Positions 1,922-52,077 of a stretch of 55,267 nt of DNA are shown here, piece by piece. Every line of letters begins with the position of its first letter. The stretch's first letter is position 1. The DNA is from Thermoanaerobaculia bacterium (lineage in GTDB: Bacteria > Acidobacteriota > Thermoanaerobaculia > Multivoradales > JAHEKO01): contig JBOGJI010000235.1 of NCBI GenBank assembly GCA_050747865.1, forward strand, positions 1 through 55,267, read 5' to 3'. The notes under the pieces are model-generated. The model ran no database searches and had not been told where the DNA came from. It saw only the letters and a program-made list of their open reading frames with translations. A program made the translations under genes and the position numbers.

Positions 1922-2997
1922 TATTTCGGTAGCGTCGGGCGTCCCTGCCCGACGCCTCGGGCCCGCTCGCCGCGGCCGCGCACCGTGCGATCCCAGGTCG
2001 CCATCCACTCCTGGCCATGACGCTCGAGGCGGCCGCGGTCGATCTCCGCGACGGCGAGCTGGCCGAGCACCGTCCGCGCCCACTCGGGCAGCTCGGATAC
2101 ATCCAGGTCGCCGCCTGCCGGCAGCCTGAAGGCCTGTTCGGCGGCCAGCTCCAGGGCCTCGCGCTCACCGATCCAGTCGATGAAGGCGCGTGCCGCGTCG
2201 GCGTCGGGCGCGCCTTCGATCAGCCCCACCGAGTCGACGATGATCGGGGTCCCGGACGCCGGGAACCGGTAGTCGAGCGGACGGCCCCATTCGAGTTGCC
2301 ACAGCGCATCGGTCAGCTCCCAGACGGTCACCAGCCCCTCGCGGCGGACCAGCTTCTCGATCATCAGCGTCGGGTTGAGGACGTATTCCTTGGTCTGCGC
2401 GTCTAGCGCGAGCAGCCAGTCGAAGCCGGCCCGGGTGTCGCCGGTCGCCGCCAGCGAGCGGGTCAGCACCATGCCGAAGAAGGTGCGCATGGTGCCGCTG
2501 GCCATGGGGTCGCGGATCAGGATCTCGTGGTCCCAGCGCGGGTCGAGCAGATCGTCCCAGTCGCCCGGCGCCGCGGCGTCCGGCACCGCGTCGGAGTTGT
2601 AGAGGAGGACCGGTGCCGTGCGGTAGACGGCGTGGTAGCGATCCTCCGGGCCGCTGTAGCCCTCGGGCAGTCGATCGGCCCACGGCGGGCGGTAGGCGGA
2701 AAGCAGCCCTTCCGCGGCGCCGCGGGCGAAGATCTCCGACGGGCCGCCGAACCAGACGTCGCCTTGCGGATTGGCCGCCTCCGAGCGCACCCGGTCGTAG
2801 ACCTCCTGCGAGCCCATGTCGAGCCAGCGCACGTCGACTCCCGGGTGCTCAGCCTCGTAAGCCTTCTCGACCAGCGACAGCAGATCGCGCCCGTGCGGCG
2901 AGTAGAGGAGCAGCTCCTCGCGCCCGTCGCCGCAGCCCGCGACCAGCGTCGCCAGCACCGCGCTCAGCGCGGGCGAACGAAGCGATCGAATCCTCAT
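1921..2997 (-). CDS. ABC transporter periplasmic substrate-binding lipoprotein (Fe3+/FbpA-like family)
   Basis: Real start MRIRSLRSPALSAVLATLVAGC (lipobox LVAGC) lies inside ORF 1921..3765. The family-1 SBP-like sequence LLLYSPHGRDLLSLVEKAYEAEHPGV...GDVWFGG follows. Confidence 0.8.
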   Translation of the reverse strand: MRIRSLRSPALSAVLATLVAGCGDGREELLLYSPHGRDLLSLVEKAYEAEHPGVDVRWLDMGSQEVYDRVRSEAANPQGDVWFGGPSEIFARGAAEGLLSAYRPPWADRLPEGYSGPEDRYHAVYRTAPVLLYNSDAVPDAAAPGDWDDLLDPRWDHEILIRDPMASGTMRTFFGMVLTRSLAATGDTRAGFDWLLALDAQTKEYVLNPTLMIEKLVRREGLVTVWELTDALWQLEWGRPLDYRFPASGTPIIVDSVGLIEGAPDADAARAFIDWIGEREALELAAEQAFRLPAGGDLDVSELPEWARTVLGQLAVAEIDRGRLERHGQEWMATWDRTVRGRGERARGVGQGRPTLPK

Positions 2998-5759
2998 GGG
3001 GCGGCGTCCTCGTCCTGTGTGCGCGCCAAGGCCAGCAGGTTGGCGAACAGGCGGTACGCCCCGGGCACGCCGGCGGGGAGCTGGCGGAAGAAGGCGAGGC
3101 CGGTGTAGACGTAGGTGCCCTCTCCCACCGGCGCCACCAGCAGCGCTCCCCGTTGCGGCTCCTCCCTCGGATCGGCCATCGCGAGCAGCGGGCGGAACGG
3201 CTCGCCCCACGACGACGGCATGTAGAGCCCTCGCTCCTGCACCCAGCCGTCCCAGTCGCCGGGTCCGATCACGTTGGGTGTGGTCAGCACCGGGCTGTCC
3301 GGCTCGAGCACGGTCACGGCCGCCGCCTGGTCGGTGACCCGGCCGTGCGGGCGCGCGATCTCCAGGGGATAGGGCGCGTAGCCGCCCGTGCTGTAGTCGT
3401 ACTGCTGGTACTGGACGATCACCAGGCCGCCGCCGCGGGCGTAGTCGAGCAGCAGCGGATTGGCGCTGCCCAGAGCCGGGCTGACCTCGAAGGCGCGGGC
3501 GCCGATGACGAGGGCGTCGAAGGGCGACAGGTCGCGCGTCGCTAGCTCCGTTGGCGCGAGCAGCTCCACGGGCAGGCCGAGGTCGATGAGCGCCTCCGGC
3601 ACCCGGTCGGCCGCGCCGCGCACGTAGCCGATGCGGTCGACGGGCGGCAGGGCGAGATCCAGGGCGACGACGCGCACCGCCGCCGGCCGCGGGTAGGGCG
3701 TGGCGCGCACGTGGGAATAGTCGACCAGCGGCACCGCCGCATCGTAGCGTCCCTCCGCCGCGCAATCAGACCCGTCGGCCGCGCAATCCACCACCGCGGT
3801 CACGGTGATCAGGTGCTCGCCCGGCGCCACCGCCCCGGACGGCTGCAGAGTCAGGCGCACGGTGGACCGCGCGTTCTCGGCCGGCAGGTGGAACGGCTGC
3901 GTCGACGAGCGCCACCCGTCCGGCGCGCTGGCCTCGAGCCGGCCGGCGAGCGGGAAGGCGGCGTGCGAGGTGAGGGTCACCTCCGGGGTATGCGGCTCAC
4001 TGCGGTCGGTCGGCCACACCAGCAGGTCCTGCGCCACGGTCACTTCGAGCGGTGGGACCACCCGAAGGGCTCGCCGCACCTCGCCGAGGGCCTGGTCCTG
4101 GCGGCGATGGACCACCTCGCGCACGAGGTCGATCTCCTCGCCGGCCAGACGCAGCCGGAACGACGCCGAAAGCGGCGGCGGCGCGAACGGCTCGCCGCGC
4201 AGCGGAGGCGAGGCGGTGGTCCAGTCGTAGAGGTCGCCATCCGGCGGCGCCGCGAGGAAGTAGGGCACCGTGGCCGGGGTGTCGGGCGGCACGTGCACGC
4301 GAAAGGCGCGCCGGAAGTAGCCGGGCTCCGCGGTGTCGCGGAACCGTGACTCGAAGCTGTCTTCATCCTCGATCTCCGCCGGCTCCACGGGGAACCCGGA
4401 GACGGACGTCAGCCGGACGTCGAGCAGCACCGCACCCGAGCCGCCGGCGTCCCAGACGGCGGTCTCGACGGTGAGTTCGGAGCCCGCGACCAGCAGGTCG
4501 CGATCGGCGAAGGCGTCGAGGCCGAGGCCGGCGACGGCCGCCAGCAGCTCGGCGGCGACGGCACGTTTCTCCTCGATCAGGTCCGCCACTCCCGCGTAGC
4601 GGCCGAGCTCCGTGCCGGCCGAACCCCGGCCGGCAGGGACGCCGGCCGCTTCAGCCCGAGATTCCACGGCCGCGAGTGCCTCCGTGAGCTGCAGATGGAT
4701 CTCCGCGGCCAATGGAAGGACGGCGCCGGGCTCGGCCGCGGTCAGCTCGGAGCGCGCCTGCCGCGCCAGCTCCTCGACCCGCGCCAGTCGCTCGCCGACC
4801 GCCGCCCGCAAAGGCTCGGGCAAAGGTTCCGCGACGGCCGCCAATCGCGTGTCGATACCGGCGAAGAGGTCGCCCGCAGCGGCATCCTCGCGCCGCCCCG
4901 CGCCACGCTCCCACGCCAGGCGGCCGGTGAACGGCCCCAGCGGCTGCAGCCTCCCCATGTCCTGGCAGCGGTGCTGGCTGCGGCTGGCCATGGCGATCTG
5001 GTAGATCGAGCGCCCGCTGACCCCTTCGAGTACGCCGAGCGGAATCTCCAGAGTCGCCTCCTCCGGCCGCCACCTGGCGCCGCGGTAGAGCGCCTGCGGC
5101 CGCCAGGGGGAAAGCCCTTCGGCGGCCAGCTCGGGGACCGCGTCCGGATCCCCGGCCATCTCATAGGCCTCGTCGGCGACGACGCCCGCCGCCTGGTGCT
5201 GCCCGTGCCCGGCGCGCTCGTCCGGCGGGAAGACCGAGACCACCACCTGCGGCCGGAAGCGGCGGATCACCCGCACCGTGTCCTCGAGCAGGACCTCGCG
5301 CGGCCAGCGCTCGAAGGTCTCCGCGAGCGAGCGGGTGTAGCCGAAGTCGAAGGCACGGGTGAAGAACTGCCGCCCGCCGTCGATGCCGCGGGCGGCGAGC
5401 AGCTCGCGGCTGCGCAGCAGGCCCAGCTCCATGCCGAGCTCCGGGCCGATCAGGTTCTGCCCGCCTTCGCCGCGGGAGAGCGACAGGTAGGCGGCCTCGC
5501 CGCCGAGGGCTCGTGCGACGTAGGCGATGAGCGTCGTGTCCTCGTCGTCCGGATGGGCGCCGATCACCAGCAGCCGCCGGTGCCCGGTGAGCTTGGCCAG
5601 CAGCCGATCGGCGCGCGCCACGCCGCCGGCGGCGGGTGGCACGAGAGGGTCGTTCAGCGGATCGAGCGCTCCGGTGGCGCCGGCGGGCGAGGTCGGGTGG
5701 AGGAGGACGAGGACGGGGAGGGCGGCGAGCAGGAGGACGACGGGAAGGATTCTGCGCAT
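2994..5759 (-). CDS. large secreted PIG-L/LmbE-family deacetylase (about 921 aa)
   Basis: Start MRRILPVVLLLAALPVLV (signal-like) at 5759 inside ORF 2994..5915. Contains the PIG-L motif VIGAHPDDED. The stop overlaps the SBP start (ATGA at 2994-2997). Confidence 0.8.
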   Translation of the reverse strand: MRRILPVVLLLAALPVLVLLHPTSPAGATGALDPLNDPLVPPAAGGVARADRLLAKLTGHRRLLVIGAHPDDEDTTLIAYVARALGGEAAYLSLSRGEGGQNLIGPELGMELGLLRSRELLAARGIDGGRQFFTRAFDFGYTRSLAETFERWPREVLLEDTVRVIRRFRPQVVVSVFPPDERAGHGQHQAAGVVADEAYEMAGDPDAVPELAAEGLSPWRPQALYRGARWRPEEATLEIPLGVLEGVSGRSIYQIAMASRSQHRCQDMGRLQPLGPFTGRLAWERGAGRREDAAAGDLFAGIDTRLAAVAEPLPEPLRAAVGERLARVEELARQARSELTAAEPGAVLPLAAEIHLQLTEALAAVESRAEAAGVPAGRGSAGTELGRYAGVADLIEEKRAVAAELLAAVAGLGLDAFADRDLLVAGSELTVETAVWDAGGSGAVLLDVRLTSVSGFPVEPAEIEDEDSFESRFRDTAEPGYFRRAFRVHVPPDTPATVPYFLAAPPDGDLYDWTTASPPLRGEPFAPPPLSASFRLRLAGEEIDLVREVVHRRQDQALGEVRRALRVVPPLEVTVAQDLLVWPTDRSEPHTPEVTLTSHAAFPLAGRLEASAPDGWRSSTQPFHLPAENARSTVRLTLQPSGAVAPGEHLITVTAVVDCAADGSDCAAEGRYDAAVPLVDYSHVRATPYPRPAAVRVVALDLALPPVDRIGYVRGAADRVPEALIDLGLPVELLAPTELATRDLSPFDALVIGARAFEVSPALGSANPLLLDYARGGGLVIVQYQQYDYSTGGYAPYPLEIARPHGRVTDQAAAVTVLEPDSPVLTTPNVIGPGDWDGWVQERGLYMPSSWGEPFRPLLAMADPREEPQRGALLVAPVGEGTYVYTGLAFFRQLPAGVPGAYRLFANLLALARTQDEDAAP

Positions 5760-5904
5760 CGGTTGTCGCCTGGATCGCCCGAGACCCGCGCGCCCGGAGG
5801 TACGATCGTCACGCGGTCTGCGCAGTATAGCCACTGCCTGCCGCCGGCCGAGCCGGTTCTCCCACCCGAGCCTCGACGCGAGCCCGGCGAGGCCGAGCAG
5901 TTCC

Positions 5905-5934
5905 TTGACATGCAACTAAAAAGTTGCATAATAT
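5905..5934 (+). promoter_or_regulatory. sigma70-like promoter with embedded palindromic operator upstream of the ArsR-family gene
   Basis: TTGACA (5905-5910), about 17 nt, then ATAATA/TAATAT (5928-5934). A perfect 8-4-8 inverted repeat ATGCAACT-aaaa-AGTTGCAT (5910-5929) fills the spacer. It is an AT-rich patch in a GC-rich context. Confidence 0.6.
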
Positions 5935-5940
5935 GTTGTC

Positions 5941-6270
5941 GTGCAGGCGGATGCCGACAAGGTGTTCAAGGCACTGGCCGACGCCACCCGTCGGCGGCTG
6001 CTCGATCGGCTGCGCGCGGACAACGGCCAGACGCTCGGCGAGCTCTGTGCGCGCCTGGACATGACCCGGCAGGCGGTGACCAAGCACCTGAAGCTGCTCG
6101 AGGAGGCGCAGCTCGTGGTCCCGATCTGGCGCGGCCGCGAGAAGCTGCACTACCTCAACCCGGTGCCGATCCACGACATCGCCGAGCGCTGGATCGGCAG
6201 GTTCGAGCGGGGCCGCCTGCACGCCCTCGTCGAGCTCAAGGAACAACTGGAAGGAGAGACCGATGGCTGA
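5941..6270 (+). CDS. ArsR/SmtB-family transcriptional regulator
   Basis: 109 aa with a winged-HTH pattern: FKALADATRRRLLDRL...LGELCARLDMTRQAVTKHLKLLEEAQLV. GTG start. Confidence 0.85.
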   Translation: MQADADKVFKALADATRRRLLDRLRADNGQTLGELCARLDMTRQAVTKHLKLLEEAQLVVPIWRGREKLHYLNPVPIHDIAERWIGRFERGRLHALVELKEQLEGETDG

Positions 6271-8800: not shown

Positions 8801-8829
8801 TTGACATGATATTGGCATAGACGTATACT
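8801..8829 (+). promoter_or_regulatory. near-consensus sigma70 promoter for the toxin-like gene
   Basis: TTGACA (8801-8806), 17 nt, TATACT (8824-8829). SD GAGGAGAG at 8869-8876 precedes the ATG at 8882. Confidence 0.6.
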
Positions 8830-8881
8830 AGGATTCCATGGCGATGATGGAGCGGACAGACGACTGCTGAGGAGAGATCTG

Positions 8882-9979
8882 ATGGGCATCCTGGACAGCA
8901 TCGGTGACGCGGCAAGACAGGTCGGCGGCGTATTCAAGGGGGCCGCCGAGGCGCTGTGGGAGACCGGCGAGGGCATCGTGGGCCTCGGCGTCGGAATCGC
9001 CAAGACGAGCTACGACACGAGCCCCCTGGGGCTCGCGATCACCGGCGCGACGCAGCTCTACGAACGAACGACCGGCAACGAGGCGAAGCTGCCGGAGTGG
9101 CTGCCCTCGGCCGAGCGCGGCGCGGCCCGTCTCGGCGCCGCGGCCGAGGTGGTCGGCACCATCGTGCAAGACCCCGGCCTGCTGGTCGACGCGGTCGTCG
9201 ACCCGATCAGGGACGACTGGAACAACGGCAACTACGGCGAGGCCATCGGCCGCGGCGCCATCGAGGTCCTCGGTGTCGTCTTCGGCACGAAGGGCGTTGA
9301 CAAGCTCGCCAAGACGGCGCGCATCGCCGACGCCGCCGGCGACGCGGGCCGCGCCGCCCGCGCCGCCGATACCGCGACCGACGCCGCAAGGGCCGGCCGA
9401 GCAGCCGAGACCGCCGAGGACACGGCCGATGCGGGCCGCGCCGCACGGCAGGCGGACCGAGCCACCGACGCCGGGCACGGCCTAAGCCGGTCCCAGATTG
9501 ACGAGATCAAGGCGACCCCGAAGGGTCAACGGCCAGACCCGAGCGAATATCTGTCCCCGACCTATATCTCCGACCACCTGGCCCAATTCGACGCCGGGGC
9601 CACGCGATTCATGCCGCGCAGCACACTGAACAAATACGGCATCGCTCGTGAGGACGGGACGTCCTTCGTCATGCCGCGACACGAAGCCGACCTGATCGAG
9701 GATGCCGCGAGGCGCGGTGACCTGCGCTACGTGGAGGAGGCGTTGGGTCTGAAGGAGGGCTTCTTCGATCAGGGAGAGCTTGTCCGGGTCGACGTGCCGA
9801 ATCCGCGCGAGCTGAATCTGCGCATACCGTCGGGAAACGAAGCCGGGGCGAGCGAGCTTTGGATCCCCGGAGGCAAACTCCCGAACGGGGCCTCTGAGGC
9901 TGTCATCGACGCCGGCGGCCTGCCCGATTCGCGCTACACTACGCGTGTCGTCGAGGTCGCCGGGGGAAACGGAGAATGA
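8882..9979 (+). CDS. polymorphic-toxin-like protein (helical N-terminal module, repetitive linker, unassigned C-terminal domain)
   Basis: 365 aa with no signal peptide. PT-TG-like stretch ITGATQLYERTTGNEAKLPEWLPSAERGAARLG (assigned from memory). Quasi-repeat linker DAGRAARAADTATDAARAGRAAETAEDTADAGRAARQADRATDAG. Distinct C-terminal domain with ...IPSGNEAGASELWIPGGKLPNGASEAVID. Confidence 0.6.
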   Translation: MGILDSIGDAARQVGGVFKGAAEALWETGEGIVGLGVGIAKTSYDTSPLGLAITGATQLYERTTGNEAKLPEWLPSAERGAARLGAAAEVVGTIVQDPGLLVDAVVDPIRDDWNNGNYGEAIGRGAIEVLGVVFGTKGVDKLAKTARIADAAGDAGRAARAADTATDAARAGRAAETAEDTADAGRAARQADRATDAGHGLSRSQIDEIKATPKGQRPDPSEYLSPTYISDHLAQFDAGATRFMPRSTLNKYGIAREDGTSFVMPRHEADLIEDAARRGDLRYVEEALGLKEGFFDQGELVRVDVPNPRELNLRIPSGNEAGASELWIPGGKLPNGASEAVIDAGGLPDSRYTTRVVEVAGGNGE

Positions 9980-10260
9980 AGCACGCGAAAGACTACTTCG
10001 TCTCGCGCGAGCACTACTATGCGCTTGGCGTCGACGAGGACACTGGTCGTCATTACCTCTCGATCCCGGTCGACAACGGTCGCGTCTCGTACGAGGAGTA
10101 TTACGAGATCGACGAGGAGACCTACAGCCGTTACATGGCCGATCCCGAAGCCGCCTTGGCGTTTGCGGAGCGGTGCAGGAATCGCGAGGTGGACGACGCG
10201 CTGATCTACCAGCCGAGCAAAGTTCGCGGCGAGCCGTATCGGCCCAAGGCATCGCCGTAG
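9976..10260 (+). CDS. putative cognate immunity protein (small acidic cytoplasmic protein)
   Basis: 94 aa. Its ATG lies inside the toxin stop (ATGA at 9976-9979) with SD GGAG just upstream. No signal peptide and rich in D/E/Y. Same lowered G+C as the toxin C-terminus. Confidence 0.55.
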   Translation: MKHAKDYFVSREHYYALGVDEDTGRHYLSIPVDNGRVSYEEYYEIDEETYSRYMADPEAALAFAERCRNREVDDALIYQPSKVRGEPYRPKASP

Positions 10261-10358
10261 TCCACAGCCCGCTTTCTCCGGGCTGGGGGCGGTGGCGATC
10301 AACTTCAGAGACGTCTGGTTCAGCCGGCGGGGGAGGTGCATGAGACAATGCCGGCGTT

Positions 10359-11204: not shown

Positions 11205-12712
11205 CCGTGCGGTCCGCGCTCCATCGACCGCTCTGCCCGGAGGGACGCGCCGCGGCGGAGGGGGCGGCGAGCGCGGTCTGTGCCGAGGCGGCCCGGCCCT
11301 ACGTGCTCGCCGCCACCATCCTCGCCTCGGCCATGGCCTTCATCGACGGCTCGGTGGTGACCATCGCGCTGCCGGCGATCCAGGACGAGCTGGCGACGGA
11401 CTTCCAGAGGCTGCAGTGGGTGGTGCACGGCTACACGTTGATGCTCGGCGCCCTGTTGCTGGTCGGCGGCGGGCTCGGCGACCGCATCGGCCGGCGTCGC
11501 GTGTTCGTCGCCGGGCTCCTCCTCTTCACGCTCGCCTCGATCGCCTGCGCGGCGGCGCCGTCGATCGGCGTATTGATCGCCGGGCGCGTCGTGCAGGGGA
11601 TCGGCGCGGCCGCGCTGGTGCCGCAGAGCCTGGCGATCATCGCCGCCAGCTTTCCGAAGGAGGTGCGGGGCGCGGCGATCGGGACCTGGGCCGCTGCCTC
11701 CGCGGTGACCACGGCGCTGGGGCCGCCGCTCGGCGGCTTCCTGATCGACAGCCTCTCCTGGCGGGTCGCCTTCTGGATCAACATCCCGCTCGCCGCCGCC
11801 GCCTTCTGGCTGACGCAGCGCCACGTGCCGGAGAGCCGCAACGAGCAGGCAGGCGGCGCGGTCGACTGGGGCGGGGCGGCGGTCGCCGTCGTGTCGCTCG
11901 GCGTGCTGACGCTCGGGCTGACGATGCTGTCCGAGCAGGGCGGCAGCCGCGGCCTGGCCTACTCTTGCCTCGCCGTCGGCGCGCTCGGCATCCTGCCGTT
12001 CCTGCGCCTGGAGAGCCGGGCTGAGAACCCGGTGATGCCTCCGGCGCTCTTCCGCTCCCCGGTCTTCACCGGAACCAACATCGTCACGCTGTTCCTCTAC
12101 GGGAGCCTGTCCGGTGCGCTTTTCCTCCTGCCCTTCGAGCTCATCGAGCGGCGCGGCCTCTCGGCGACGCAGGTCGGCCTCACGCTGCTGCCGCTCGGGC
12201 TCATCATCGGCCTGTTCTCGCGCCGGGCCGGCGCGGCGGCCGACCGCGTCGGGCCGCGGCCTTTCCTCGCCGTGGGCGCGCTGCTCGTCGTCCTCGCCTG
12301 TGCCGGGCTGGCGCTGAACCTTTCGAACTTCTGGCTGGGCGTGCTGCTGCCCGTGCTGCTGCTCGCGGCCGGTTTGGCGACGGCGGTGTCGCCGCTCACC
12401 ACGGCGGTCATGAACTCGGTGCCGGACGCGCAATCCGGGGCCGCCTCGGGGGTCAACAACGCGGCGAGCCGGCTCGCGGGCCTGTTTTCGGTGGCGATCC
12501 TCGGCGCCGTGGCGAGCTTGCTCTTCGCCCGTGCGGCGCCGCCGCAGGCGCGGTTCGGCGTGCTTCCGCCGCTCGACGATCCGGCGCGCGCCACGCTGGA
12601 GGGCGCTTTCTCGACCGGGTATGCGGCCGCCATGGCTTTGGCCGCCGTGGGGGCCGCGGCGGCGGCGGTCTGTTCGTTCCTGTTGCCACGCCGCGCCGCG
12701 CGGCCGGCGTGA
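11201..12712 (+). CDS. MFS transporter, DHA2 (EmrB/QacA-like, about 14 TMS)
   Basis: 503 aa and highly hydrophobic. LGDRIGRRRVF motif. GTG start overlaps the M23 stop (GTGA). Confidence 0.85.
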   Translation: MTVRSALHRPLCPEGRAAAEGAASAVCAEAARPYVLAATILASAMAFIDGSVVTIALPAIQDELATDFQRLQWVVHGYTLMLGALLLVGGGLGDRIGRRRVFVAGLLLFTLASIACAAAPSIGVLIAGRVVQGIGAAALVPQSLAIIAASFPKEVRGAAIGTWAAASAVTTALGPPLGGFLIDSLSWRVAFWINIPLAAAAFWLTQRHVPESRNEQAGGAVDWGGAAVAVVSLGVLTLGLTMLSEQGGSRGLAYSCLAVGALGILPFLRLESRAENPVMPPALFRSPVFTGTNIVTLFLYGSLSGALFLLPFELIERRGLSATQVGLTLLPLGLIIGLFSRRAGAAADRVGPRPFLAVGALLVVLACAGLALNLSNFWLGVLLPVLLLAAGLATAVSPLTTAVMNSVPDAQSGAASGVNNAASRLAGLFSVAILGAVASLLFARAAPPQARFGVLPPLDDPARATLEGAFSTGYAAAMALAAVGAAAAAVCSFLLPRRAARPA

Positions 12713-49687: not shown

Positions 49688-50125
49688 TTAGAACCAGAAC
49701 TGGTCGATCTCGCGCTGCGTGGGCAGGTTGATGTTCTTCACCTCGATGCCGATCTTCTCCTTGCCCTGGCGCAGCTCGTCGAACACGGCGACCATGGCGC
49801 CGTAGGGCGACGCGGGAGTCGGCCGGATGATCACCGGCTTCAACGGATTGCGCGCCAGCTTGGGCTTCAGGTAGTCGAGGATGTCCTGGAGCTGCATCGG
49901 CTGCTGATCCACCAGATAGGACCCGTTCTGCTGGATCTCGATCAGCGTCGACTCCTCCTTCTCGACGATCGGCGGCTTGTCCTCCTCCTTGGGCAGGGCG
50001 AAGTCGAGACCCTGGGTGGCGGCGAAGGTGGTGGTCACCATGAAGTAGATGATGAGCAGGAAGGCGATGTCGGCCATCGACGAGGTGGGGATCTCGTCCG
50101 ACGGCTTCTCACGTCTGAATTTCAT
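49688..50125 (-). CDS. exbD: biopolymer transport protein ExbD/TolR
   Basis: 145 aa with the SSMADIAFLLIIYFMVTT motif. Confidence 0.85.
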   Translation of the reverse strand: MKFRREKPSDEIPTSSMADIAFLLIIYFMVTTTFAATQGLDFALPKEEDKPPIVEKEESTLIEIQQNGSYLVDQQPMQLQDILDYLKPKLARNPLKPVIIRPTPASPYGAMVAVFDELRQGKEKIGIEVKNINLPTQREIDQFWF

Positions 50126-50138
50126 GATCGCGACTCCT

Positions 50139-50570
50139 TTACGACTGCTCGTCCACGGTCTCGGCGTCCGACAACAGGTAGATCACCCTGGCTCGGGACT
50201 GCTTCAGCGCGTCGATGACCTCGTCCACGTAGCGGTACGGGACCTCCGTGTCCGCCTTGAGCACGAACTCCTTGTCCGGGTTCTGCGCCACCACCGAAGT
50301 GGCGAACGACAGCACCTCGGCGGGACCGGAGACGGGGACGCTGGTCTCCTCTCCGCTGGAGACGCGGATCTGCCCGTTCTCCGTGATCGAGATGTACGCG
50401 GATCGGCGCTCGGGCTCCGAACGGATGACGCTGGCGGGCAGCTGGACCTGGGTCTTGTCCACCTCGATGTTGAGCGTCAGGAGGAAGAAGATGATGAGCA
50501 GGAAGGCGATGTCCGCCATCGAGGCGGTCGGGATCATGAAGTTCTGCGTCGAGCGTACGCGCAGTCTCAT
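50139..50570 (-). CDS. exbD: biopolymer transport protein ExbD/TolR (second copy)
   Basis: 143 aa with the ASMADIAFLLIIFFLLT motif. Confidence 0.85.
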   Translation of the reverse strand: MRLRVRSTQNFMIPTASMADIAFLLIIFFLLTLNIEVDKTQVQLPASVIRSEPERRSAYISITENGQIRVSSGEETSVPVSGPAEVLSFATSVVAQNPDKEFVLKADTEVPYRYVDEVIDALKQSRARVIYLLSDAETVDEQS

Positions 50571-50620
50571 GGCTTACCTCCTCGTCTCCTTCCGTTGCGG
50601 CTCCAACGGAGTCATCGTCG

Positions 50621-51319
50621 TCAGGTGCGCGCCGGCGCCGAGACGCCCGCGCCGGCGGCCGCCGCGGCCTCGGGCCGCACGCCGCTGCGCTCCAGCTCGC
50701 CGAAGGTCTCGAGCAGCATGTTGGTCGAGGTCTCGATGTCGCGCACGAACTTGTTGATGCGGCTCATGAAGTAGTTGTAGAAGAGCTGCGTCGGGATGGC
50801 GATCGCCAGACCGGCGGCGGTGGTGATCAGGGCCTCGGAGATACCGACCGCCACCGCGGCGGGGTTGGAGAGGCCCTCTCGCGCCAGCGCGTCGAACGAC
50901 CGGATCATGCCGGTGACGGTGCCGAAGAAGCCGAGCAACGGCGCCACGTTGGCGACGGTGGCGAGAACCACCAGTCCCCGCTCCAGACGGCCCATCTCGA
51001 ACAGCGCCGCGTTCTCGATGGTCTTCTCGACGTCCTCCTTGGGGGCGCCGTACTTCAAGAGCCCCGCCTTGACGATCGAGGCCACGGGCCCGCGATACTG
51101 CTCGCAGACCTTGACCGCGTCGCGAATCGACTTGTTGACGATCAGCGCCTTGCGCAGCTTGGCGAGGAACTCGTTGACGTTGATCCTGGCCCGGCGCAGG
51201 TTCCACCAGCGCTCGATGATGAAGACGACAGCGACGACTGAGAACGCGAGAAGGAACCACATCACGTAGGGGGCCTGCATGGCCCCGCCTTTCTGCATGA
51301 ATTCCCAGAAAGCAGTCAC
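50621..51319 (-). CDS. exbB: MotA/TolQ/ExbB proton channel
   Basis: 232 aa. APLLGFFGTVTGMI and EALITTAAGLAIAIP motifs. GTG start with SD AGAGGAGAGG. Confidence 0.9.
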   Translation of the reverse strand: MTAFWEFMQKGGAMQAPYVMWFLLAFSVVAVVFIIERWWNLRRARINVNEFLAKLRKALIVNKSIRDAVKVCEQYRGPVASIVKAGLLKYGAPKEDVEKTIENAALFEMGRLERGLVVLATVANVAPLLGFFGTVTGMIRSFDALAREGLSNPAAVAVGISEALITTAAGLAIAIPTQLFYNYFMSRINKFVRDIETSTNMLLETFGELERSGVRPEAAAAAGAGVSAPART

Positions 51320-51555
51320 TATTCCTCTCCTCTTGCTCCATTGACCCGCGACGTGCGGATCCGGTTCCCGTTGTCTGGTGCCGGGCGCCTGGCGTCCAGC
51401 CGGCGTCGCGGCACCGCCCCTCCGGTCACAAAATCCTCCTCACGCTGCCTACGGTCCAACGCCCCCGTCCCGCATGCCGGAATCCCCGCGAGGGGGGTCG
51501 GTGCCGCGGGGACGTCGGGGGAAGGGAGCACGTTAGCATGGGCGCGAAAACAGGG

Positions 51556-52077
51556 TCAAGAACGGCCGTCCCGGCGGCTGCCCGCGACCGCGCCCGCCAG
51601 GCGGTCGAGCCTGTAGCGATGGGCGGCGCAGATCGCAACGGCGAGAGCGTCGGTGGTGTCGGCGGACAGCGTCGGGTCATTCAGGTCGAGCAGCATCTGC
51701 ACCATGCGTGCCACTTGTCGCTTGTCGGCGCGGCCGTTGCCGGTGACCGCGGTCTTGACCTGCGCGGGGGCGTATTCGACGACCGGCACGCCGCGGCCGG
51801 CCAGCGTGGCGAGCAGCACGCCCCGGGCCTGTGCCAGCACGATCAGGGAGCGGCTGTTCGATCCGTGGAACGGGCTCTCCAGGGCGGCGATGTCCGGTCG
51901 GGCGGCCGCGACGACGGCCGCCAGCCCGTCGGCGAGCCGCGCGAGACGGTCCGCCAACGGCAGACCCGAGGGGGAGCGGAGGCAGCCGCGGTCGGTCGCG
52001 CGCAGGCGGTCGCCTTGCTGCTCGACCAGGCCGTAGCCGGTGTTTCGACTGCCGGGATCGATGCCCAGGAAGAGCAC
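51556..52077 (-). CDS. ruvC: crossover junction endodeoxyribonuclease RuvC
   Basis: 173 aa. LGIDPGSRNTGYG, LESPFHG and DALAVAICAAH motifs. Confidence 0.9.
   Translation of the reverse strand: MLFLGIDPGSRNTGYGLVEQQGDRLRATDRGCLRSPSGLPLADRLARLADGLAAVVAAARPDIAALESPFHGSNSRSLIVLAQARGVLLATLAGRGVPVVEYAPAQVKTAVTGNGRADKRQVARMVQMLLDLNDPTLSADTTDALAVAICAAHRYRLDRLAGAVAGSRRDGRS

Follow-up and report, generated by a model that had tools for sequence, protein, structure and literature searches.

The toxin Tne5, found at the C-terminus of a Rhs protein of Pluralibacter gergoviae, is an ADP-ribosyltransferase (ART)-like NAD(P)+ glycohydrolase that converts NAD+ to nicotinamide and ADP-ribose. Its toxicity in E. 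coli is neutralised by the gene downstream of it, and five architectures have been described for it in the literature, namely PAAR, Rhs, contact-dependent inhibition (CDI), LXG and ShK (Desjardins et al., J Biol Chem 2026, PMC13285283). SPN of Streptococcus pyogenes (PDB 4KT6, 3PNT) is another atypical NADase of the ART superfamily, and its immunity protein IFS plugs the active site. In the NADases Tse6/Tne1 and Tne2 (PDB 4ZV0, 6B12), small immunity proteins occlude the active site (PMC10539506). Here we analysed a 55,267-nucleotide stretch of DNA from a Thermoanaerobaculia bacterium (contig JBOGJI010000235.1; hereafter the window), which carries two overlapping genes for proteins of 365 and 94 amino acids (aa). 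We consider it likely that the pair is a toxin-immunity cassette, in which a Tne5-type domain depletes target cells of NAD(P)+, the 94-aa protein protects the producer, and an interchangeable N-terminal module (N-module) carries the toxin.

The preliminary description of this DNA, made from its letters alone, had pointed out the two open reading frames (ORFs), their ATGA overlap and a TTGACA-17-TATACT element in front of them, and all were found to be present at the positions it gave. It had also divided the larger protein into three parts. This layout was borne out by a Gly-rich helical N-terminal part, a linker that is 41% Ala and whose coding sequence has a weak quasi-repeat of 21 nt (9326-9366), and a globular C-terminal domain, the AlphaFold2 model of which had a predicted local distance difference test (pLDDT) value of 93. 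The genes, the parts of the toxin and the residues discussed below are located as follows.

8882..9979, + strand: toxin gene, 365 aa; N-module, linker and Tne5-type toxin domain in this order (from homologs and translation)
8882..9304, + strand: N-module, residues 1-141; Gly-rich, predicted to be all-helical; presumed trafficking or pre-toxin module
9305..9481, + strand: Ala/Asp/Arg-rich linker, residues 142-200; partly disordered, of varying length among homologs, which measure 321-365 aa in all
9482..9979, + strand: toxin domain of the Tne5 family, residues 201-365 (conserved core: about 208-354); predicted to be an ART-like NAD(P)+ glycohydrolase
9605..9607, + strand: codon for Arg242, which aligns with Tne5 Lys1392
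9839-9841, + strand: second invariant Glu, Glu320 (from the family alignment)
9896..9898, + strand: codon for Glu339, aligned to Tne5 Glu1482; invariant within the family and a candidate for the catalytic residue
9976..10260, + strand: putative immunity gene, 94 aa; acidic, predicted to be cytoplasmic; homologous to ORFs downstream of the toxin domain

Homologs were detected down to E=4e-167 for the 365-aa ORF and E=1.7e-45 for the 94-aa ORF, so both are real genes. The G + C content at third codon positions (GC3) of the toxin gene is 0.84, like that of the neighbouring genes. Neither protein has a match in Pfam, NCBIfam or PADLOC.

The reference sequence of Tne5 was obtained from the type-strain locus (L001, P. 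gergoviae ATCC 33028), which was retrieved via a published mutagenesis primer sequence and encodes a 1503-aa Rhs protein together with a 72-aa immunity gene. BLASTP comparison of the toxin domain of the window protein with residues 1330-1503 of the Rhs protein found 44% identity over 141 aa (E=5e-31). The published primers encode AQFDGGVS-K-IAW and PVT-E-AVIS, which are similar to AQFDAGAT-R-FMP and GAS-E-AVID of the window protein. Because of this identity and E-value the C-terminal domain is, by homology, a member of the Tne5 family and not a new fold; the preliminary description, which had found it unassignable and possibly new in fold or activity, did not hold on this point. The activity predicted for it is probably NAD(P)+ hydrolysis, a class already known since 2026. 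Pfam still has no model for the Tne5 domain. Of the checks proposed earlier for this domain, structure prediction yielded a confident model (pLDDT 93, predicted template modelling score 0.86), and neither a Pfam match nor a significant Foldseek match was obtained.

A relation to TNT-type NADases had also been guessed. The NADase class was probably correct, but the relation to TNT and Tse6 was not: the domain is related to the ART-like SPN/Tne5 type, it has no Pfam TNT match at E<=1 and no sequence match to NADases of the TNT type in the PDB, and Foldseek gave E=2.3 and a TM-score of 0.25 for Tne2 (6b12). A Tne2/Tse6 identity, which PAAR-bearing relatives from Pseudomonas had also suggested, was rejected for these reasons.

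A search of 5.8 billion proteins yielded 141 matches, which were sorted into three classes by local BLAST. The first class comprised full-length relatives with 55-75% identity and lengths of 321-363 aa. Members of the second class had only residues 1 to about 219 in common and carried another C-terminus, mostly a PF13930 nuclease; two further C-termini of this class, that of P0025 and P0035 and that of P0026, could not be assigned. The third class shared only residues from about 201 to 354, with about 60% identity, and these followed heads of the PAAR, Rhs, DUF4150 (PAAR-like), DUF6861, DUF637, type VII secretion system (T7SS)-secreted and WXG100-like types. An exhaustive search with the toxin domain (the C-terminal 165 residues) gave 1159 clusters at 50% identity, in which the domain, with few exceptions, forms the very C-terminal end; the proteins that carry it measure up to 5781 aa. 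One copy was found on plasmids, at the end of a Rahnella hemagglutinin-repeat (CdiA-like) protein. The C-terminus and the downstream ORF change together, with an 87-aa ORF after Tne5-type cassettes and ORFs of 144-148 aa after nuclease-type cassettes. This is the variation for which a check had been suggested at the outset, a conserved N-terminus with a variable C-terminus and downstream ORF, and the homologs showed it. Because the N-module swaps C-termini and the toxin domain swaps heads, the locus follows the pattern of polymorphic toxins, and these comparisons support the reading of the gene pair as a polymorphic toxin with a coupled immunity gene.

Both kinds of cassette were seen in tandem in one related locus (L082, 10001..13414), where a Tne5-type gene with its 87-aa ORF, an SseB-family gene (PF07179) and a PF13930-type gene with a 148-aa ORF follow each other, the two toxins having the same N-module. 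In Luteimonas sp. WGS1318 (L084), this dapF-xerC-hslVU site holds the nuclease cassette alone.

The N-module has the pattern MGI.D.IG..QVGG.FKGAGE.LWETGKG ... W.NGNYGEAIGRG ... GTKG and is shared, at 50-83% identity, with proteins that end in other toxins. It has no match in Pfam, and a profile search recovered only about 60 clusters, all named members of which are from Luteimonas; by this range, the cassette would probably lie in the chromosome of a Luteimonas-like bacterium of the Lysobacteraceae. The module was found neither on 72,556 plasmids nor on the viral contigs of IMG/VR. The N-terminal part contains 17% Gly, its maximum hydropathy is 1.27, and AlphaFold2 predicted helices at low confidence (pLDDT 37-82). 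Values below 50 were obtained for residues 135-159. A resemblance to the pre-toxin TG module (PF14449), proposed in the preliminary description, was rejected, as 0 of 59 family members matched that model even at E<=5 and related modules have GEAN or GIGA in place of the TG of GTKG. The likeness to pre-toxin TG is thus conceptual only, a helical segment before a toxin domain that in the window protein ends in G-T-K-G.

With a pI of 5.0 and no hydrophobic segment, the 94-aa protein agrees with its first characterisation as an acidic, signal-less protein, and its start codon lies within the stop codon of the toxin gene (ATGA at 9976-9979). We surveyed 80 metagenome loci encoding the toxin domain, 76 of them with readable downstream sequence. 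The ORF directly after the toxin stop codon was a homolog of the 94-aa protein in 72 of these 76 (phmmer E 1e-16 to 1e-35), nearly always of exactly 87 aa regardless of the N-terminal head of the toxin. The family has the consensus ..SIPVSN..DYEEYY..CR.RE.D..KPG..RG and no match in Pfam. Identities of toxin domain and immunity protein co-vary over 60 distinct pairs (Pearson 0.79; Mantel 0/2000), to which linkage and shared descent contribute. An immunity role of the 94-aa protein is thus well supported by position, coupling and co-variation at the sequence level, and the toxin-immunity coupling suggested earlier from the overlap was upheld.

In L089, the locus with the closest relative of the window toxin, the toxin gene is followed at 9092..9659 by an 87-aa immunity gene and then by a 96-aa gene, whose product is 79% identical to the 94-aa protein of the window. 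The 94-aa form looks like a subtype, and the 96-aa gene like an extra or orphan immunity gene against a window-type toxin variant. Another ORF takes the place of the 87-aa family after the Tne5 domain in L041, L057, L064 and L065 (114, 822, 211 and 203 aa, respectively), and in L072 a 355-aa ORF encloses the match to the immunity family; such ORFs perhaps encode immunity proteins of an alternative or fused kind.

In the P. gergoviae enzyme, K1392, F1409, L1434, N1467 and E1482 are predicted NAD-contact residues, and the exchange K1392A attenuated toxicity (PMC13285283). An alignment of 223 toxin domains found that these NAD-pocket columns are kept in the family: K1392 corresponds to R242 of the window protein (R 86%, K 4%), F1409 to F262 (F 99%), L1434 to L288 (L 98%), N1467 to S324 (N 91%, S 7%) and E1482 to E339 (E 99%). 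Candidate functional residues can thus be pinpointed as R242, E320 and E339. In ART toxins, a Q or E two residues before the catalytic Glu is needed for transfer to protein (PMC3795565). The toxin family has no conserved Q or E two residues before the invariant Glu, which makes simple NAD hydrolysis the more likely predicted reaction when compared with transfer.

According to the mechanism that we propose, the Tne5 domain would, once in the cytoplasm of the target, most likely hydrolyse NAD+ and NADP+ to nicotinamide and ADP-ribose, and redox metabolism would collapse. Its predicted NAD pocket is probably formed by Arg242, Phe262, Leu288, the SGNEAGA(N/S)..W.PGG loop and the invariant Glu339. 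The 94-aa protein would be translationally coupled to the toxin through the ATGA overlap and, by analogy with other NADase immunity proteins, most likely shields the producer by binding to the toxin domain and closing off its NAD pocket. The N-terminal 141 residues and the flexible Ala-rich linker would act as an interchangeable carrier that brings different toxin domains to one common export or translocation route. The homologies, the swapping of modules and the linkage and co-variation of the two genes were shown by the comparisons above; enzymatic activity, mode of neutralisation and route of delivery are inferred.

Several observations weigh against this mechanism. Foldseek comparison of the toxin-domain model with the PDB found no significant match (best E=0.034, TM-score about 0.3); the top seven matches were all NAD-using toxins of the ART superfamily (MbcT, ParT, RES), which at non-significant scores serve as a lead only. 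The top PDB matches of a clean, domain-only sequence profile were the SPN NADase entries 4kt6 and 3pnt, which remained sub-threshold at E of about 0.3, and PDB searches with the single protein, or with an initial profile in which unrelated N-terminal heads diluted the signal, returned only noise. A point of likeness is that the SPN alignment spans SPN residues 363-383, the loop that lines the NAD cavity and precedes E389-x-E391; Glu339 of the window protein opens a predicted beta-strand just past the stretch aligned to this loop. On the immunity side, the 94-aa family did not match the published Tni5 by BLASTP (E=0.66) or hhalign (probability 1%), and its hidden Markov model (HMM) scored Tni5 with E=0.0014 in a single comparison, at 5 bits. 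No secretion-system genes were found among the sampled window genes (8 kb on each side and ten larger ORFs elsewhere in the 55 kb) or in three Luteimonas-type loci. Neither protein has a signal peptide or transmembrane segment, and delivery of the toxin between cells is assumed. Finally, the founding Tne5 is an outlier at near-invariant positions: it has F where 100% of 223 domains have R (R217), K for R242, G for T260 (T 89%) and H for S261 (S 63%), while the window protein has the majority residues, so the activity of the latter could differ in detail.

Immunity families often differ within one toxin family, and because of this the toxin domain stays in Tne5 despite the mismatch with Tni5. 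The motifs SIPVSN, DYEEYY and KPG..RG are absent from Tni5, and the collected protein set held no close relative of the P. gergoviae domain that would bridge both immunity families. Membership of the 94-aa ORF in the Tni5 family was not established by BLASTP, HMM or hhalign.

The relatives of the pair lie in unrelated housekeeping neighbourhoods, at dapF-xerC-hslVU (L082, L084), at ybeY/corC (L086) and near lepA (L089), and in the window the pair is located between a DUF4440 gene and an M23 peptidase gene; secretion genes were near none of these sites. A lead on delivery came from Caballeronia. A profile was built from Luteimonas-type sequences only and compared with targets in which the toxin domain was masked, at a nominal database of 10^6 sequences. 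The core of the N-module (profile positions 12-138) matched two Caballeronia proteins, P0034 and P0045, with E=8e-7 and 5e-6. In both, the module is located between a PAAR-like domain and Tne5, and the gene lies within a TssF-VgrG-DUF2169 cluster of a type VI secretion system (T6SS). The PAAR-like Tne5 toxin gene of the Caballeronia locus is followed by an 87-aa immunity ORF and then by a toxin fragment. Given this setting of its core, the N-module appears compatible with T6SS delivery, and T6SS cargo is our leading guess and best lead; published work on the T6SS in Luteimonas added nothing on this point. The 87-aa immunity ORF of this locus (L088, 9767..10676), directly after the toxin, had been missed by the gene caller; the fragments downstream belong to another PAAR-like/N-module gene and are a typical scar of a displaced cassette. 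An X-type type IV secretion system (X-T4SS) was considered as another route and rejected: X-T4SS substrates carry a C-terminal XVIPCD domain (PMC6536674), and the C-terminus here is the toxin.

A broader proposal is that small polymorphic toxins of the stand-alone kind in Luteimonas-like bacteria make up a delivery class not yet described, defined by the N-module and accompanied by a new immunity family unrelated to Tni5. The module would be either a bacteriocin-type entry module that works independently of a secretion system or a new recognition or translocation module that loads PAAR-less effectors onto the T6SS or another apparatus. We hold this to be doubtful, with perhaps an outside chance of proving correct. 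The narrower reading as a soluble bacteriocin of the colicin or pyocin kind, whose N-module binds a receptor and translocates the NADase after release by lysis or leakage and without a dedicated secretion system, appears quite unlikely. It would account for a stand-alone pair whose chromosomal surroundings are ordinary and vary from one relative to the next, and the layout recalls that of colicins, with a Gly-rich flexible N-terminus, a helical middle, a toxic C-terminus and then an immunity gene; the restriction of named N-module members to Luteimonas is also expected for receptor-specific bacteriocins. However, no lysis gene was found in the window or its relatives, no TonB or Tol box was recognisable by eye, and the module is absent from plasmids and phages, the home of many bacteriocins. 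It is also short (141 aa), and the presence of its core inside a PAAR-like T6SS effector points to a role that would agree with injection.

Somewhat less probable again is that the main clade, including the window protein, consists of true ADP-ribosyltransferases acting on a macromolecule, from which the NAD-hydrolysing P. gergoviae member departs as an atypical one. The conservation of R242 (86%), T260 (89%) with S261 (63%), and E339 (99%) recalls the R-S-E triad of ARTs, where the characterised Tne5 has K, G-H and E, besides lacking the R217 that is 100% conserved; judging from the primers published, it may have been a residue other than the invariant Glu that was mutated. Transfer is spoken against by the lack of a Q/E-x-E motif and by the relation to SPN.

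The primer list deserves a description of its own. The Tne5 reference has two EAVI motifs (L001, 2262..2380, - strand), with Glu at 1482 (IPEAVID, codon gaa) and at 1492 (VTEAVIS, codon gag), and in the numbering of the 1503-aa ORF it is Glu1482 that aligns with the family-invariant Glu. The primer named 'E1482A' in Table S1 (PMC13285283) anneals to the DNA around E1492 (PVT-E-AVIS). If the table is correct, the mild 'E1482A' phenotype may concern the non-conserved Glu and not the invariant one, as judged from the primer sequence. This mismatch between primer and residue matters for the question of whether the catalytic Glu of these enzymes is of the classical ART type.

The weakest of the alternatives, an undelivered intracellular type II toxin-antitoxin (TA) module of the RES-Xre, MbcTA or ParST type, serving for example growth arrest or phage defence, would agree with a small, tightly coupled pair behind a strong promoter, with the lack of nearby secretion genes and of a signal peptide, and with TA toxins (MbcT, ParT, RES) as the best Foldseek matches, but we regard it as very improbable, given that large secreted toxins (PAAR, Rhs, CdiA-like, T7SS) almost always carry the domain, at their C-terminal tip, when it occurs, that a 200-residue N-terminal region swapped between toxin domains is foreign to TA toxins, that the toxin gene comes first and its partner has no Pfam or DNA-binding domain, and that PADLOC gave no match and the Foldseek scores were non-significant.

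As a toxin-immunity cassette, the window pair is closest to Tne5/Tni5. The two systems have in common a homologous toxin domain of the same length, with a putative, predicted ART-like alpha/beta fold and shared pocket residues, placed at the C-terminus of a polymorphic toxin and directly followed by a small cytoplasmic immunity gene. They differ in the carrier, which is a 141-aa helical module with a linker in the window and PAAR, a transmembrane domain (TMD) and Rhs (PAAR-TMD-Rhs) in Tne5, and the stand-alone form is not among the five published architectures. The window locus has no adjacent T6SS genes, its toxin has Arg in place of Lys1392 and keeps the R217 and T260-S261 that Tne5 lacks, and its immunity protein belongs to another family or has diverged from Tni5 beyond recognition. 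The Caballeronia PAAR-like (DUF4150) T6SS effectors P0034 and P0045 share the N-module core, the Tne5 domain and the 87-aa immunity family; they have an extra 240-residue N-terminal PAAR-like domain, whereas the window protein begins directly with the module (MGILDSIG...).

SPN and IFS resemble the pair as an atypical ART-superfamily NADase with its immunity protein. However, SPN has an extra helical linker subdomain, the E389-x-E391 motif and His273 in place of Arg, and enters host cells with streptolysin O, and IFS, at about 160 aa, does not correspond in size to the immunity family of 87-94 aa. Tse6/Tne1 and Tne2 are similar in polymorphic-toxin logic, in having PAAR-linked relatives and probably in substrate and outcome, NAD(P)+ depletion, but belong to another fold family than the window toxin.

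Compared with the 2026 description of Tne5, the stand-alone architecture on an undescribed Luteimonas-type module is new, as are the conserved immunity family of about 87 aa, distinct from Tni5, that accompanies most family members and the atypical nature of the founding Tne5 at several near-invariant positions. Tne5 domains thus also travel on a small Luteimonas-type carrier module, and more than 1000 sequence clusters absent from Pfam become annotatable as a Tne5 group instead of as hypothetical proteins.

Two putative expression signals precede the toxin gene.

8801..8829, + strand: promoter-like site of the sigma-70 type, TTGACA-17-TATACT; 11/12 positions matching, 53 nt ahead of the start codon of the toxin gene
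8870..8875, + strand: Shine-Dalgarno-like motif AGGAGA; spaced 6 nt from the ATG (read directly from the sequence)

Promoter-like hits numbered 4 in the first 20 kb of the window, which has 70% G + C, against 0.7 in shuffles. The TTGACA-17-TATACT site is one of these 4, which agrees with the earlier remark that near-consensus promoters are rare here, and a promoter function of the site is inferred from its sequence. A LexA-box-like reading of the region, made by eye, was dropped, the half-site spacing being off by one. The related Luteimonas-type loci do not have the TTGACA-17-TATACT site and have a different upstream motif instead. This motif, AGGG-N5-6-CCCC(A/G)GATTG, is common to the Luteimonas-type N-module toxin genes at about 55-65 nt before the start codon (L082, ~9930-9950 and ~11830-11850; L084 and L086, ~9930-9950), is absent from the window and may be a site for a regulator or an alternative sigma factor. 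The hairpin at 10265-10285 after the immunity gene is unexceptional (z=-1.3), and a terminator scan found none there. An Rfam search of the whole window gave no match.

The sole other near-consensus promoter-like site in the first 20 kb, TTGACA-16-CATAAT (11/12) at 5905..5934, lies within the short gap between the divergent genes 2994-5915 (-) and 5941-6270 (+), and overlaps an AT-rich hairpin (5910-5929), classed by the scan as terminator-like. Far from the gene pair, at 49688..52077 (-), a run of short ORFs (145, 143, 232 and 173 aa) with high GC3 and unusually low G + C at codon positions 1 and 2 looks like a conserved housekeeping operon, possibly encoding ribosomal proteins.

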